Numbered from the stretch's first letter, positions 1,682 through 6,473 are shown. The stretch is DNA of 6,473 bases from a virus (IMGVR_UViG_3300029841_000297); one strand, 5' to 3'. A program made the numbers and translations. The notes: generated from the letters alone by a model not told the origin.

Positions 1682-4153
1682 ATGAGTAAAGTCTTTATTT
1701 GCGCCGCCATTCCGGACGAACAGGCAATAAAGGAAGAAGGTGCCGTCGCTGTAGCCACTGCCATTGAAGCCGGTGATGAACGTCGCGCCCGCGCAAAATT
1801 TCACTGGCAATTCCTGGAACATTATCCGGCTGCTCAGGACTGCGCTTATAAATTTCTTGTCTGCGAGGATAAACCCGGTATACCCCGCCCTGCCCTCGAT
1901 TCCTGGGATGCTGAATATATGCAGGAAAACCGCTGGGATGAGGCGTCTGCTTCCTTTGTCCCGGTTGAGACTGAATCAGATCCGATGAACGTCACTTTTG
2001 ACAAGCTGGCCCCTGAAGTACAGAACGCTGTCATGGTTAAGTTCGACACATGTGAAAACATCACCGTTGATATGGTGATTAGCGCGCAGGAACTGTTGCA
2101 GGAAGACATGGCAACATTCGACGGACATATCGTTGAAGCGTTGATGAAAATGCCAGAAGTTAACGCCATGTATCCGGAGCTTAAGCTGCATGCCATCGGG
2201 TGGGTTAAGCATAAATGTAAGCCTGGTGCCAAATGGCCCGAAATTCAGGCAGAGATGCGCATCTGGAAAAAACGTCGCGAAGGTGAACGCAAGGAAGCCG
2301 GAAAATACACGTCTGTTGTTGATCTCGCCCGCGCCAGAGCCAATCAACAGCACACTGAAAATTCAACAGGAAAAATCAACCCGGTCATTGCTGCCATTCA
2401 TCGCGAATACAAGCAGACATGGAAAACACTGGATGACGAACTGGCCTACGCTCTCTGGCCTGGTGATGTGGATGCCGGAAACATTGACGGCAGCATCCAT
2501 CGCTGGGCAAAAAATGAAGTTATCGACAACGACCGCGAAGACTGGAAGCGTATCTCGGCATCAATGCGCAAACAGCCTGATGCCCTTCGCTACGACCGCC
2601 AGACTATTTTTGGCCTTGTCCGTGAACGTCCGATCGACATTCACAAAGACCCTGTGGCACTGAACAAATACATTACTGAATACCTGACTACAAAGGGCGT
2701 GTTTGAAGATGAAGGAACAAATCAGAGCGCAACTGATACTCTCTCGTCGCCAGTACCAGAAACTGATGCAGTGGAAACGGCAATTCCGGACAACGAAAAA
2801 ACCGAATGCAAAGTGGAAGTCGAACCATCTGTAGAACGTGAGGGGCCGTTCTACTTCCTCTTCACCGACAAGGATGGCGAAAAATACGGTCGCGCAAACA
2901 AACTTTCTGGTCTGGATAAGGCGCTGTCTGCTGGGGCTACTGAAATCACGAAAGAAGAATATTTCGCCCGCAAAAACGGTACATACTCAGGTTCACAACA
3001 AAATACTGGTGCATCTGACACGACCGCACAACCAGGGTCAGTAAAAGTTACCGCTGACGAAGTAAACAAAATTATGCAGGCAGCCAATATCAGCCAGCCT
3101 GACGCCGATGAACTGCTTGCAGTATCACGTGGTGAATTTGTTGAAGGGATTAGCGACCCGAATGATCCGAAATGGGTTAAGGGGAACCAGACCCGCGATT
3201 CTGTGAACCAGAACCAGCAAGAAACGGAACAGAACGACCAGAAAGCGGAACAAAACAGCCCAAATGCGTTACAAAACGAGCCAGAAACGAAACAGCCTGA
3301 ATCAGTGGCGCAACAGGAAGTGGAAAAAGTCTGCACCGCCTGCGGTCAGACCGGCGGCGGCAACTGCCCTGATTGTGGCGCGGTAATGGGCGACGCAACA
3401 TACCAGGAAACATTCGATGAAGAGTATCAGCCTGAAGTTCAGGAAGATGATCCGGAGGAAATGGAAGGCGCTGAACATCCACACAAGGAGAACACTGGCG
3501 GCAATCAGCATCACGATAGCGATAATGAAACTGGCGAGACGGCAGATCACTCAATTAAGGTGAACGGTCATCAAGAAATCACATCCACCAGCAGGACGTG
3601 TGACCATCTAATGATCGACCTTGAAACCATGGGAAAAAATCCTGATGCCCCGATCATCTCAATAGGTGCAATATTTTTCGATCCGCAAACCGGAGATATG
3701 GGACCGGAATTTAGTAAGACTATCGATCTGGAAACTGCTGGCGGGGTCATTGATCGGGACACCATTAAATGGTGGCTTAAGCAATCACGCGAAGCGCAAT
3801 CTGCCATTATGACCGATGAAATCCCGTTAGATGATGCACTGTTACAATTGCGGGAATTTATCGACGAAAACTCCGGTGAATTTTTTGTTCAGGTTTGGGG
3901 AAATGGAGCCAACTTCGACAACACGATTTTGCGCCGTTCATACGAACGGCAGGGGATCCCCTGCCCGTGGCGTTACTACAACGATCGCGATGTACGCACA
4001 ATCGTTGAGCTGGGGAAAGCCATAGACTTCGATGCCAGAACGGCTATTCCATTCGAAGGTGAGCGCCATAATGCACTTGATGACGCTCGTTACCAGGCAA
4101 AATACGTTTCAGCTATCTGGCAAAAACTGATCCCGAGTCAGGCTGATTTTTAA
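1682..4153 (+). CDS. Large phage exonuclease, 823 aa: RecE (exodeoxyribonuclease VIII)-like N-terminal and middle region, acidic/Q-rich linkers, a CxxC-x10-CxxC zinc-ribbon-like motif, and a C-terminal DEDDh (DnaQ/RNase T-like) 3'-5' exonuclease domain
   Basis: GAGG at 1669..1672 about 9 nt before ATG 1682; 823-codon frame. C-terminal domain (about nt 3599..4150) carries exo motif I MIDLETMG (D at 3617..3619, E at 3623..3625), motif II WGNGANFDN and motif III HNALDDARY (H at 4067..4069), the DEDDh pattern. The segment LLAVSRGEFVEGISDPNDPKWVKGNQTRD matches what I recall of Rac RecE (from memory, unverified). Cys cluster CTACGQTGGGNCPDCG at 3332..3376. Confidence 0.8.
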   Translation: MSKVFICAAIPDEQAIKEEGAVAVATAIEAGDERRARAKFHWQFLEHYPAAQDCAYKFLVCEDKPGIPRPALDSWDAEYMQENRWDEASASFVPVETESDPMNVTFDKLAPEVQNAVMVKFDTCENITVDMVISAQELLQEDMATFDGHIVEALMKMPEVNAMYPELKLHAIGWVKHKCKPGAKWPEIQAEMRIWKKRREGERKEAGKYTSVVDLARARANQQHTENSTGKINPVIAAIHREYKQTWKTLDDELAYALWPGDVDAGNIDGSIHRWAKNEVIDNDREDWKRISASMRKQPDALRYDRQTIFGLVRERPIDIHKDPVALNKYITEYLTTKGVFEDEGTNQSATDTLSSPVPETDAVETAIPDNEKTECKVEVEPSVEREGPFYFLFTDKDGEKYGRANKLSGLDKALSAGATEITKEEYFARKNGTYSGSQQNTGASDTTAQPGSVKVTADEVNKIMQAANISQPDADELLAVSRGEFVEGISDPNDPKWVKGNQTRDSVNQNQQETEQNDQKAEQNSPNALQNEPETKQPESVAQQEVEKVCTACGQTGGGNCPDCGAVMGDATYQETFDEEYQPEVQEDDPEEMEGAEHPHKENTGGNQHHDSDNETGETADHSIKVNGHQEITSTSRTCDHLMIDLETMGKNPDAPIISIGAIFFDPQTGDMGPEFSKTIDLETAGGVIDRDTIKWWLKQSREAQSAIMTDEIPLDDALLQLREFIDENSGEFFVQVWGNGANFDNTILRRSYERQGIPCPWRYYNDRDVRTIVELGKAIDFDARTAIPFEGERHNALDDARYQAKYVSAIWQKLIPSQADF
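3599..4150 (+). other. DEDDh 3'-5' exonuclease domain within the 823-aa protein
   Basis: Motifs D-x-E, D and H-x4-D in the canonical order and spacing of DnaQ-like/RNase T-like exonucleases. Confidence 0.7.
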
Positions 4154-4211: not shown

Positions 4212-4415
4212 ATGAGCAGCTTATTTTTAACCGAAGATGAATTGCTAATATTAACGGGCTGCAAATATGCAAGCCACCAGCGAAAATGGTTAATGGAAAA
4301 CGGGCTTCCGTTCTATACCAATCGTAGTGGCAAACCGATTGTCAGCCGGGATCTATTTACCTGCAATAAAACTTTACCACCACGCGAGGTAGAGCCGAAT
4401 TTTGGTGCGATCTGA
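4212..4415 (+). CDS. xis: Excisionase-like small DNA-binding protein, 67 aa (DUF4224-type, found immediately upstream of prophage integrases)
   Basis: Position directly upstream of int, with its stop overlapping the int start (ATGA-type junction at 4413..4417). The pattern LTxxELxxLTGxKxxxxQxxWLxxNGLPF is typical of this family (recalled). Confidence 0.7.
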   Translation: MSSLFLTEDELLILTGCKYASHQRKWLMENGLPFYTNRSGKPIVSRDLFTCNKTLPPREVEPNFGAI

Positions 4416-5440
4416 TGGGAAGACGAAGGAAAAATCCTGAACACGAAAAATTACCTCCAAATGTATACCCAAATAAATATAGTTATGTATGGAAACCAAC
4501 ATCCAGAGAATCTGTCACACTAACCGCCATCAAGGATGGTTTAGCTGCTTTATGGAAAAAGTATGAGGAAACTGTAAATAATCGCGATCGTGCAATGACA
4601 TTCGGTCGCTTGTGGGAAAAATTCCTCGCCAGCGCCTGTTACAGTGACCTTAGTCCAAGAACACAAAAAGATTATCTGCAACATCAAAAAAAGTTGCTTG
4701 CCGTATTCGGTAAGGTACCAGCGGATTCCATAAAACCAGAACACATCCGTCGATACATGGACAAAAGAGGGGAGCAGAGTAAAACGCAAGCCAACCATGA
4801 AAAAAGCAGTATGTCCCGTGTTTACAGTTGGGGGTATGAGCGAGGGTACGTCAAGGCTAACCCATGTGCAGGTGTAAGTAAATTCAAGGCCAAAAACCGC
4901 GAACGATATGTAACCGACAAAGAATACCAGGCAGTATTAAGCGTTGCACCTCTTCCTGTTTTTATCGCAATGGAAATTGCCTATCTGTGTGCAGCGAGGG
5001 TTTCCGATGTGTTATCGCTGAAATGGGAACAGATTGGAAACGACGGGATATTCATCCAGCAAGGGAAAACCGGAAAAAAACAGATAAAAGCATGGAGTCC
5101 ACGATTACAGGCAGCGATCGAAAAAGCAAAACAGTTACCAAAATCTGCCTATGTGATCAGCAATCAATACGGCAACCGATATATGTACAAAGGCTTTAAC
5201 GAAATGTGGGTAGAAGCAAGAAATCGTGCTGGAAAAATTTCAGGTATTTTAACCGACTTCACCTTTCATGATCTGAAGGCGAAAGGAATTTCAGACTATG
5301 AAGGAAGCAGCCGGGATAAGCAACTTTTCTCTGGTCACAAAACCGAAGGGCAAGTGCTAATCTATGACAGGAAGGTTAAAGTTTCACCAACACTTGATGT
5401 CCCGTTACCTGAAAATATTCCAAGAAAATATTCCAAGTAA
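4415..5440 (+). CDS. int: Lambda-family tyrosine integrase, 341 aa, with N-terminal arm-binding domain
   Basis: N-terminus MGRRRKNPEHEKLPPNVY resembles lambda Int MGRRRSHERRDLPPNLY. Catalytic-region matches: AARVSDVLSLKWEQI (Arg I), QQGKTG (Lys), FHDLK (box II), GHKTEGQVLIYDR (His and Tyr nucleophile) versus lambda RVGDLCEMKWSDI / SKTG / FHELR / GHKSDTMASQYRDD. Lies next to a tRNA gene. Confidence 0.93.
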   Translation: MGRRRKNPEHEKLPPNVYPNKYSYVWKPTSRESVTLTAIKDGLAALWKKYEETVNNRDRAMTFGRLWEKFLASACYSDLSPRTQKDYLQHQKKLLAVFGKVPADSIKPEHIRRYMDKRGEQSKTQANHEKSSMSRVYSWGYERGYVKANPCAGVSKFKAKNRERYVTDKEYQAVLSVAPLPVFIAMEIAYLCAARVSDVLSLKWEQIGNDGIFIQQGKTGKKQIKAWSPRLQAAIEKAKQLPKSAYVISNQYGNRYMYKGFNEMWVEARNRAGKISGILTDFTFHDLKAKGISDYEGSSRDKQLFSGHKTEGQVLIYDRKVKVSPTLDVPLPENIPRKYSK

Positions 5441-5447
5441 TTCCAAG
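5414..5447. repeat. Direct repeats AAATATTCCAAG x2 (5413..5424, 5426..5437) plus a third TTCCAAG (5441..5447) spanning the int stop codon; candidate arm-type integrase binding sites
   Basis: Perfect 12-bp direct repeat at 13-bp period and a third heptamer copy 10 bp on, about 45 bp from the tRNA 3' end. Confidence 0.35.
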
Positions 5448-5492
5448 TGTGATTTTTGTCACTGACTTAATGATGTGTAAGTGATTGAATTT

Positions 5493-5540
5493 TGGCGGAG
5501 AGAGGGGGATTTGAACCCCCGGTGGAGTTGCCCCCACTCC
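5493..5540. other. Probable att core / prophage-host junction overlapping the 3' portion of tRNA-Ser (attL in lambda convention); extent approximate
   Basis: The integrase is transcribed toward the tRNA and ends 52 bp from its 3' end. Tyrosine-integrase prophages at tRNA genes carry a core identical to the tRNA 3' segment. The second copy needed to delimit it is outside the window. Confidence 0.45.
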
Positions 5541-5582
5541 GGTTTTCGAGACCGGTCCGTTCAGCCGCTCCGGCATCTCTCC
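5493..5582 (-). tRNA. serU: tRNA-Ser (anticodon CGA), 90 nt, class II tRNA with long variable arm
   Basis: Reverse complement reads GGAGAGATGCCGGAGCGGCTGAACGGACCGGTCTCGAAAACCGGAGTGGGGGCAACTCCACCGGGGGTTCAAATCCCCCTCTCTCCGCCA: 7-bp acceptor stem, anticodon loop CU-CGA-AA, T-loop GGTTCAAAT, 3' GCCA. Adjacent to mtfA as in E. coli (recalled gene order). Confidence 0.95.
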
Positions 5583-5675
5583 GTTCAGATGGTTGCCATG
5601 ATGCCAGGAAATTTGGCATTTTAACAGTCCCTGTCCGTGCAATTTTGTTCAAGTGACGAGTTTGCGAGCAAAACG
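5583..5675. promoter_or_regulatory. Divergent intergenic region expected to carry the tRNA-Ser and mtfA promoters
   Basis: Lies between the 5' ends of the two divergent genes. On the minus strand a TAAAAT -10-like hexamer (5619..5624) sits upstream of the tRNA; hairpin ATGCCA-GGAAATT-TGGCAT at 5601..5619. No clear -35. Confidence 0.3.
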
Positions 5676-6473
5676 ATGATTAAGTGGCCCTGGAAAGTAC
5701 AAGAATCAGCACATCAAACTGCCCTTCCCTGGCAGGAAGCACTATCGATCCCCCTTTTAACGTGTCTGACAGAACAGGAACAAAGCAAATTGGTCGCTCT
5801 TGCCGAACGTTTTTTACAGCAAAAACGGCTTGTTCCTTTACAGGGCTTTGAGCTGAATTCATTAAGAAGCTGCCGGATAGCACTTCTATTTTGCCTGCCC
5901 GTTCTGGAGTTAGGACTGGAATGGCTGGATGGTTTTCATGAAGTCTTAATTTATCCTGCGCCATTTGTGGTCGATGATGAATGGGAAGACGATATCGGTC
6001 TGGTGCATAACCAACGTATTGTTCAGTCAGGTCAGAGCTGGCAGCAAGGGCCTATCGTTTTGAACTGGTTGGATATACAAGATTCTTTTGATGCTTCTGG
6101 TTTTAACCTGATTATTCATGAAGTCGCTCATAAGCTGGACACCCGTAACGGCGATCGCGCCAGCGGAGTTCCCTTTATTTCGTTGCGTGAGGTTGCTGGC
6201 TGGGAACACGATCTTCATGCTGCAATGAACAACATTCAGGAAGAAATCGAATTAGTTGGTGAGAATGCGGCGAGCATTGATGCTTATGCTGCCAGTGATC
6301 CTGCTGAATGTTTTGCCGTACTTTCTGAATATTTCTTTAGCGCCCCAGAACTTTTTGCTCCTCGTTTCCCTTCATTGTGGCAACGTTTCTGTCAATTTTA
6401 TCAACAAGATCCTTTGCAGAGACTGCATCACGCTAATGATACAGACTCGTTTTCGGCGACGAATGTTCATTAA
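5676..6473 (+). CDS. mtfA: MtfA, Mlc titration factor A / zinc-dependent peptidase, 265 aa
   Basis: Protein [23 protein letters not shown]... with HEVAH metallopeptidase motif; length and sequence match E. coli MtfA as I recall it. The ORF-track frame 5637..6473 begins at an upstream in-frame GTG; ATG 5676 is preferred. Confidence 0.9.

Follow-up and report, generated by a model that had tools for sequence, protein, structure and literature searches.

In bacteriophage lambda, the phage attachment site (attP) works with a heterobivalent integrase (Int) and carries arm-type sites in both arms, P1 and P2 in the P arm and P'1–P'3 in the P' arm, along with sites for IHF. The lambda target is the intergenic region between gal and bio, and the identity block is 15 bp. 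Other phages and islands use a tRNA gene: their crossover falls in the anticodon loop, and they supply the 3' half of the tRNA. P22, HP1, and many mycobacteriophages belong to this group. With integrases of this kind, the loop is usually the overlap and the two halves of the anticodon stem are inverted core-type sites. In the mycobacteriophages, the common core lies over the tRNA 3' half with tolerated differences, and putative arm-type sites flank it (PMC10865867).

The serU gene is a recognized prophage site in STEC, and the prophages found there include some that encode Stx and some with type III secretion effectors (PMC7067040, PMC13188871). The DNA analyzed here, a viral stretch of 6,473 nucleotides (IMGVR_UViG_3300029841_000297) that is called the window throughout, has at its 3' end a lambdoid recombination module and then host DNA. 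We read positions 5413–5582 as the integrase-proximal, attL-type junction of a lambdoid prophage in serU, a host half-core joined to the phage P' arm, and the repeats in which the integrase gene (int) ends as arm-type sites for Int, a reading to which we give a probability of roughly 0.85. The junction is an example of the well-known lambda-style design in an integrase family for which we found no published arm-site map; a search for arm-site mapping of this family, Salmonella phage ST64B, Klebsiella phage P7641, or Citrobacter phage Chris1 returned nothing in the searchable literature.

The Prophage Junction at serU

The features that define the junction and its surroundings are as follows.

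1682–4153: 823-aa exonuclease
4212–4415, plus strand: DUF4224 gene, 67 aa, probable excisionase/directionality factor (Pfam PF13986, E=1.9e-15)
4415–5440, plus strand: int, lambda-family tyrosine integrase, 341 aa (Pfam Phage_integrase PF00589, E=1.6e-11; SAM-like/central domains PF22022 and PF14659)
5449–5462: imperfect palindrome GTGATTTTTGTCAC, read from the sequence
5493–5554: 62-bp block of identity at att, the common core in the wide sense (from a three-way alignment of the window with the unoccupied locus and the far prophage end)
5493–5582, minus strand: serU, tRNA-Ser(CGA), intact, 90 nt (ARAGORN; matches K-12 serU except for one compensatory pair)
5676–6473, plus strand: mtfA, host flank that reaches the window end (Pfam Peptidase_M90, E=3.8e-60; RefSeq annotation of the identical locus)

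The region corresponds to zinT-yodB-serU-mtfA-asnT of E. coli. Positions 5300–5900 of the window are 100% identical to strain 4/0, in which a prophage of about 41 kb lies between zinT and serU. By megablast, the int-serU-mtfA junction is present in 1152 of 5426 complete E. coli genomes. The junction boundaries suggested by megablast, 5478 and 5485, were rejected; they overshoot the true junction at 5493 because the host flank there happens to resemble a phage box. The integrase ends 52 nt from the tRNA 3' end, just as the earlier note on this DNA had said (5441–5492, between the stop codon at 5438–5440 and the serU 3' end at 5493). Between int and serU, the search for terminator-like and promoter-like sites found none, and the palindrome at 5449–5462 likewise gave no terminator-like hit. 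ST64B has a similar sequence, GTGATTTTCATCAC, at the position that matches this palindrome.

Alignment with an unoccupied locus, a check that the earlier note had named, places the start of identity at the tRNA and gives a block shared by phage and host at 5493–5554. The points of divergence between phage and host are 5492/5493 on the left and 5554/5555 on the right, and three-way alignments in three further genomes return the same block. The block spans the CCA end of the tRNA, the acceptor and T arms, the variable arm, the 3' strand of the anticodon stem, and the anticodon loop, and it also takes in four of the five nucleotides of the 5' strand of the anticodon stem. A second att copy at the other prophage end, whose absence the note had named as a refutation, is present as a direct 62-bp copy of the tRNA 3' segment beside zinT in four genomes, strain 4/0 and, beside zinT/yodB, three others (7936–7997 in L001, and also in L011, L013, and L014).

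The P arm and the second att copy sit outside the window and were read from other genomes with an identical junction. The attP of the E. coli phage was rebuilt from its two junctions, and true attPs were taken from ST64B, Chris1, and P7641. Two near-identical sequences, ON470583 and ON470580, were considered as free-phage attP and rejected; they are predicted prophages that contain host flank (mtfA, asnT) and therefore yield no attP.

Putative Arm-Type Sites

The repeats at the end of int are listed here with the neighboring box, with distances taken from the center of the serU anticodon loop.

5412–5424, plus strand: putative P' arm site a, AAAATATTCCAAG; 8-mer ATTCCAAG at 5417–5424, 130 bp from the loop center
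5425–5437, plus strand: putative P' arm site b, AAAATATTCCAAG; ATTCCAAG at 5430–5437, 117 bp from the loop center
5438–5447, plus strand: putative P' arm site c, TAATTCCAAG; ATTCCAAG at 5440–5447, 107 bp from the loop center
5478–5490, minus strand: box TAAGTGATTGAAT (read on that strand as ATTCAATCACTTA), which departs from the IHF consensus WATCAANNNNTTR at one position and is a candidate H'-like bending site

The putative arm-type repeats encode the final nine codons of int and its stop, the TAA at 5438–5440 that falls inside site c. The earlier note had described three TTCCAAG repeats at the end of int, two of them as a perfect 12-mer. The three repeats hold up, with exactly three occurrences of TTCCAAG in the window (5418, 5431, and 5441), but the perfect tandem unit is 13 nt rather than 12 (AAAATATTCCAAG, 5412–5437). 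Tandem Repeats Finder (TRF) reports a period of 13 with 2.1 copies and a 100% match, and also a 10-nt period across 5430–5448. The count alone is unremarkable, as 22 of 200 shuffles also reach three TTCCAAG in 6.5 kb; it is the clustering of the repeats, not their number, that is striking.

The distribution of the 8-mer is informative over a longer stretch of DNA. Both strands of 49.9 kb of strain 4/0 were searched, which covers the whole prophage and its flanks and includes a junction identical to that of the window. There are five copies of ATTCCAAG, and all of them lie in the att arms: three direct copies beside int, and one inverted and one direct copy past the core. From the center of the anticodon loop, their positions are −130, −117, −107, +47 (inverted), and +112. 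They thus stand well away from the core, to which their sequence is unrelated.

The sites are also conserved among prophages. The presence of the repeats in related prophages was a test set beforehand, and they are found in all seven inspected prophages that carry this integrase. Among the seven, site a is conserved apart from a single G>C change in the Stx2b phage of strain 2012EL-2448, which keeps all five site positions. Immediately before the repeats, about 20% of the positions at the 3' end of int in this phage are changed, and the flanking sequence of its arms also has many differences; its homology to the other phage stops just beyond the distal site.

More distant relatives keep the positions of the sites and change their sequence. 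Chris1 (with TATACCAA) and P7641 and ST64B (both with TTTTCTCA) each carry their own motif at −131±1, −118±1, −108, +47 (inverted), and +110–111. The five-site geometry recurs with different motifs in four attP-containing relatives, to within 2 bp in these three phages, and arm-site positions are conserved across five attPs that use three different motifs. Prophages of Siccibacter and Dickeya have the int-side triple with a spacing of 13 and 10/11, beside a different serine tRNA, with the anticodon TGA. Sodalis and Gilliamella were left out of the site comparison, as their tRNA fragments are decayed or rearranged. Sites that co-evolve with a DNA-binding domain would be expected to behave in this way, holding their positions while their sequence changes.

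Candidate sites for IHF complete the layout. There are four perfect matches to the consensus WATCAANNNNTTR in the 49.9 kb, three of them at the att region. Two are in the P arm, at +25 between the core and the inverted site and at +80 between the two arm sites, and the third is on the host side, immediately 3' of serU. Both P-arm consensus sites are kept in the Stx2b phage with different N4/central bases. Perfect consensus sites were not found in the attPs of Chris1, P7641, and ST64B. Beside the tRNA 3' end, GTAAGTGNTTGAAT is conserved in ST64B, P7641, and Chris1, with a close variant, GTAAGTTATTGAAA, in Dickeya. Judged by sequence, IHF may be the protein that binds the consensus sites and the 5478–5490 box.

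These features support the arm-type arrangement that the earlier note had proposed; further support comes from a motif present in both arms, a conserved geometry, and an integrase with a lambda-like N terminus. The repeats at the end of int are very probably docking sites for the integrase in a recombination complex. In the proposed mechanism, the N-terminal domain of the lambda-like Int would bind the three direct (A/T)ATTCCAAG repeats, the P arm would add two sites (inverted at +47 and direct at +112) and two perfect IHF consensus sites, and Int would link the arms to the core within a bent intasome, in the manner of lambda Int.

The Integrase and the DUF4224 Protein as Candidate Binders

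The integrase has both a C-terminal tyrosine-recombinase catalytic domain and a central core-binding domain, and its closest clusters (P0001–P0006) have a length of 341 aa. It is homologous to lambda Int over its length. With phmmer, residues 1–313 align to residues 1–338 of lambda Int (1z1b) with E=6e-13, and the alignment begins at Met1 (MGRRR..LPPN.Y), with MGRRRKNPEHEKLPPNVY against MGRRRSHERRDLPPNLY. An AlphaFold2 (AF2) model of the integrase has a mean pLDDT of 84.8, and its best structural matches in Foldseek are full-length lambda Int (E=1e-15, and E=1.2e-15 for 1z1b), with alignments that span 334–361 columns. Residues 17–58 of the model form three strands (17–19, 23–26, and 34–38) and a helix (43–58); block-mean pLDDT in the N-terminal domain is about 87–89, with 77 for residues 51–60. 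The last residues of Int are a translation of the arm sites (..YSK and stop here, ..YTK and stop in Chris1) and are modeled as disordered. From these comparisons, the N-terminal domain of Int is the likely protein to bind the repeats.

A different possibility is that the repeats are sites for another protein, either the DUF4224 product or a host factor, and not for the Int N-terminal domain. The DUF4224 gene lies directly upstream of int, its stop overlaps the int start codon, and a DUF4224 gene is likewise directly upstream of int in Siccibacter, Dickeya, and Sodalis. Judged from gene position, its product is probably an excisionase or directionality factor. The ST64B gene at the same position, which is annotated as an excisionase, encodes a protein 34% identical to the DUF4224 protein, and the DUF4224 protein has no match to any characterized Xis family. 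Part of the case for a different binder is that the Pfam model of the lambda arm-binding domain (PF09003) matches the integrase below threshold, over residues 1–20 only (E=0.016; 15.7 bits, with the cut-off at 22). The DUF4224 proteins also diverge in step with the motif classes: the E. coli protein is 52% identical to that of Siccibacter and 34–35% identical to those of ST64B and P7641. Because this divergence runs in parallel with the motifs, covariation alone cannot assign the repeats to Int.

Several observations nonetheless favor Int over another binder. The layout, with five sites distributed between the two arms and a tandem triple beside int, is that of the lambda Int arm sites; sites for lambda Xis are known in one arm only. 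The N-terminal domain of Int is lambda-like by alignment and by model. In addition, from one motif class to another, this domain has changed more rapidly than the remainder of Int. The integrases of Chris1, P7641, and ST64B are about 57–59% identical to the E. coli integrase. Between the E. coli and Siccibacter integrases, which go with the same motif, the N-terminal 58 residues are 78% identical and the rest 67%, whereas between the E. coli and ST64B integrases, which go with different motifs, the figures are 36% and 63%. Counting against this pattern, Chris1 and Dickeya share a motif, yet the N-terminal domains of their integrases are only 47% identical. On balance, it seems distinctly unlikely that the repeats serve a protein other than Int.

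Slippage and Copy Number of the 13-mer

The view that the repeats arose by functionless replication slippage at the 3' end of int, with their position next to att a coincidence, gains something from the two 13-mers being perfect tandem copies and from variation in their number. When a query with one 13-mer was used, at least 43 E. coli genomes match at ≥99% identity, with the site b unit missing, and about 1087 genomes match with a 13-nt gap that indicates two copies, so slippage does act here. As an account of the repeats themselves, however, it is very improbable. Relatives with other, nonidentical repeats have three sites with the same 13 and 10/11 spacing at the same distance from the core, the other arm has two more copies with none elsewhere in about 50 kb, and the repeats have been kept even where the int codons around them have changed.

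If the repeats are arm-type sites for Int, the variation in copy number bears on the sites and on the protein together. Deletion of one 13-mer shifts the open reading frame to a frame ending in ..PENIPSNSKCDFCH at 5463–5465. The integrase tail is therefore ..PENIPRKYSK with two copies and ..PENIPSNSKCDFCH with one. Genomes with one copy include O157:H7 strains, and the annotation of one of them, O157:H7 MB9-1, gives the one-copy form as an intact integrase of 344 aa. As read from the sequences, the one-copy state is a slippage deletion that would remove one putative arm site and change the C-terminal residues of Int. Because all outgroups have three sites, the state with two copies and three sites is taken as ancestral.

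The annotation of this gene can give a different impression. The Prokaryotic Genome Annotation Pipeline (PGAP) labels the integrase as "frameshifted" in four of the five inspected RefSeq genomes with two 13-mers, and it does so because its reference protein is the 344-aa form from the minority one-copy variant. An explanation of the tandem 13-mer as a recent, inactivating frameshift duplication was considered and rejected; the 341-aa form is dominant (clusters P0001 and P0002), and the outgroups all carry three sites at the same spacing.

The 13-bp tandem could in principle be a slippage-prone switch that tunes or locks the competence of the prophage for excision and integration across E. coli lineages, in which loss or gain of a unit would leave one P' arm site fewer or more and an altered Int tail. 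We regard this idea as unlikely.

The tRNA Allele and the Strand-Exchange Interval

Three features within the identity block bear on where the strands were exchanged.

5524: G on the plus strand, the phage-type base, where unoccupied serU has A; third pair of the variable arm, 3' side
5535: C on the plus strand, the phage-type base, where unoccupied serU has T; third pair of the variable arm, 5' side
5536–5554: strand-exchange interval, 19 bp (phage alleles on the int side against host alleles at the far end)

The earlier note had suggested that the variable arm of K-12 serU differs from the copy in the window, and this is correct: MG1655 serU reads AGTAGGGG...CTCTAC and the window AGTGGGGG...CTCCAC. 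Positions 5524 and 5535 are the only two differences between the window and MG1655 serU. They pair with each other as the third of 6 bp in the variable-arm stem predicted by ARAGORN, G-C here and A-U in K-12, and ARAGORN gives an identical cloverleaf for both alleles.

The distribution of the two alleles reveals the origin of the pair. G and C are found at these positions in seven of the seven int-side copies inspected, and A and T in all four far-end copies, in the unoccupied locus, and in K-12. The G-C pair therefore came with the phage. This bears out the proposal that an intact tRNA, which folds as a cloverleaf in ARAGORN, has a 3' portion supplied by the phage, with the far-end copies retaining the host A/T alleles. 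The serU gene in the window is a hybrid, with its 5' part (5555–5582) from the host and its 3' part, up to the point of exchange, from the phage.

The note had also suggested that the compensatory change could mark the crossover boundary. Its derivation from the phage stands, but it does not mark the point of exchange, which lies further on. The tRNA is phage-derived from its 3' end through the variable arm, and the exchange is therefore within 5536–5554. This interval holds the anticodon loop (5544–5550), with the stem strands at 5539–5543 and 5551–5555. By analogy with other anticodon-loop integrases, the 7-nt loop is presumably the overlap, and the stem halves would be the inverted core-type sites.

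That the G-C pair is an ordinary host polymorphism of serU, uninformative on the crossover, is scarcely tenable: 31 more genomes have the G/C allele than have the megablast junction (1183 against 1152, of 5426), but the two counts are nearly equal, single genomes hold G/C in the int-side copy and A/T in the far-end copy, and K-12 and the unoccupied locus are A/T. The excess of 31 genomes could be divergent or decayed prophages.

With a phage origin for the pair, a series of steps can be proposed for integration. The phage attP carries a 62-bp copy of the 3' portion of serU, and exchange of strands by the integrase would take place within the anticodon stem-loop. Integration would thus leave at serU a tRNA gene with a host 5' part joined to a phage 3' part, and the host 3' part that it displaced would persist as a fragment at the far end of the prophage.

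Significance and Comparison with Known Systems

The general concepts of integration are unchanged by this finding. Its value lies in the locus and the family: serU is a common prophage insertion site in E. coli, with this junction in about a fifth of complete genomes. The attP map, which consists of five putative arm sites, two IHF consensus sites, the 62-bp block, and the interval of exchange within the anticodon stem-loop, gives exact att sites with which occupancy, excision, and phage-derived tRNA alleles can be scored in genomes. It also offers defined targets for work on why serU prophages differ in mobility. The family as a whole is a clean natural case of arm-site specificity that shifts while the geometry stays fixed, which should be useful in the engineering of orthogonal lambda-type integrases.

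Compared with lambda, the integrase is homologous over its full length, N terminus included. As in lambda, one arm has two of the five putative arm-type repeats and the int-side arm has the other three in tandem, IHF consensus matches lie between the arm sites and the core, and int ends in or right beside the P' arm. Unlike lambda, the target here is a tRNA gene, the identity block is 62 bp, and one P-arm site is inverted. The (A/T)ATTCCAAG motif is unrelated to the lambda arm consensus, and the candidate excisionase is a DUF4224 protein, which by Pfam is no homologue of lambda Xis. The P' triple also lies about 107–130 bp from the center of exchange, unlike in lambda, because the 3' half of the tRNA sits between them.

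The locus resembles those of phages that integrate at the anticodon loop of tRNA genes in that the identity block reaches from the anticodon stem as far as the 3' end of the tRNA, the regenerated tRNA still folds with its phage-derived differences, and the core is flanked by putative arm-type sites. It differs in that here one compensated base pair marks the phage part, and the exchange is bounded to 19 bp.

The closest likeness is to ST64B, P7641, and Chris1, which share a tRNA-Ser-type core, the five-site geometry to within 2 bp, and the GTAAGTGNTTGAAT box. Their arm motifs are different, TTTTCTCA and TATACCAA, and the int genes of ST64B and P7641 end well short of the repeats, whereas here int ends within them.

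Copy Number of the Putative Arm Sites and the Integrase C Terminus

The tandem 13-mer at the 3' end of int (window 5412-5437), which forms two of the three putative P' arm sites, is polymorphic in copy number among E. coli genomes. Two copies are found in ~1087 genomes and give an integrase of 341 aa, while a single copy, in at least 43 genomes, gives one of 344 aa with the C-terminal end PENIPSNSKCDFCH. An example of the one-copy form is as follows:

L022 (E. coli O157:H7 MB9-1), 179-1213: one-copy int gene

This difference in copy number explains why PGAP labels the 341-aa protein, the commoner form, as "frameshifted." The C-terminal tail of the integrase is the arm sites translated (window 5411-5440), ending in YSK and the stop codon, and the same is true in Citrobacter phage Chris1, where the tail ends in YTK (L016 1588-1599). 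The tail has pLDDT below 50 in the AF2 model. Since the int reading frames of the related phages ST64B and P7641 stop ~40-50 bp ahead of the repeats, the tail looks dispensable. At the other end of the gene, the Chris1 int coding sequence as deposited has 84 extra N-terminal codons (L016 304-555) that overlap a DUF4224-like ORF read in a different frame, and translation probably begins instead at the methionine of MGRPRK.

The Attachment Region and Flanking Host DNA

An imperfect palindrome, GTGATTTTTGTCAC (window 5449-5462), separates the arm sites from the core and is conserved in ST64B as GTGATTTTCATCAC. Directly 3' of serU, the host DNA holds a perfect match to the IHF consensus, TATCAATGACTTA (L001, the strain 4/0 locus, 7920-7932; also K-12), that agrees at 10 of 13 positions with the phage P' arm box at the equivalent position (window 5478-5490). 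This resemblance is why megablast places the boundary beyond the real junction. The likeness may be fortuitous, or it may be an old remnant of phage DNA at the "unoccupied" site.

Related Prophages and Integrases

The junction region of the window is identical to that of strain 4/0, but window 1-~1000 gave no match to that locus when compared at a fixed offset, a sign that the early regions differ by an indel or by mosaicism. The source of the window is therefore a prophage related to that of strain 4/0 but distinct from it. Among serU prophages, the one whose integrase and attP have diverged most is that of strain 2012EL-2448, which is >50 kb long and carries stx2b (L010 30699-31934) and two toxin-antitoxin pairs.

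In Siccibacter (L018 2181-2384) and Dickeya (L019 2230-2407), an arm motif identical or similar to this one (ATTCCARG, TATACCAA) adjoins another serine tRNA, whose anticodon is TGA. From these sequences, core and arm specificity appear to have reassorted within the integrase family.
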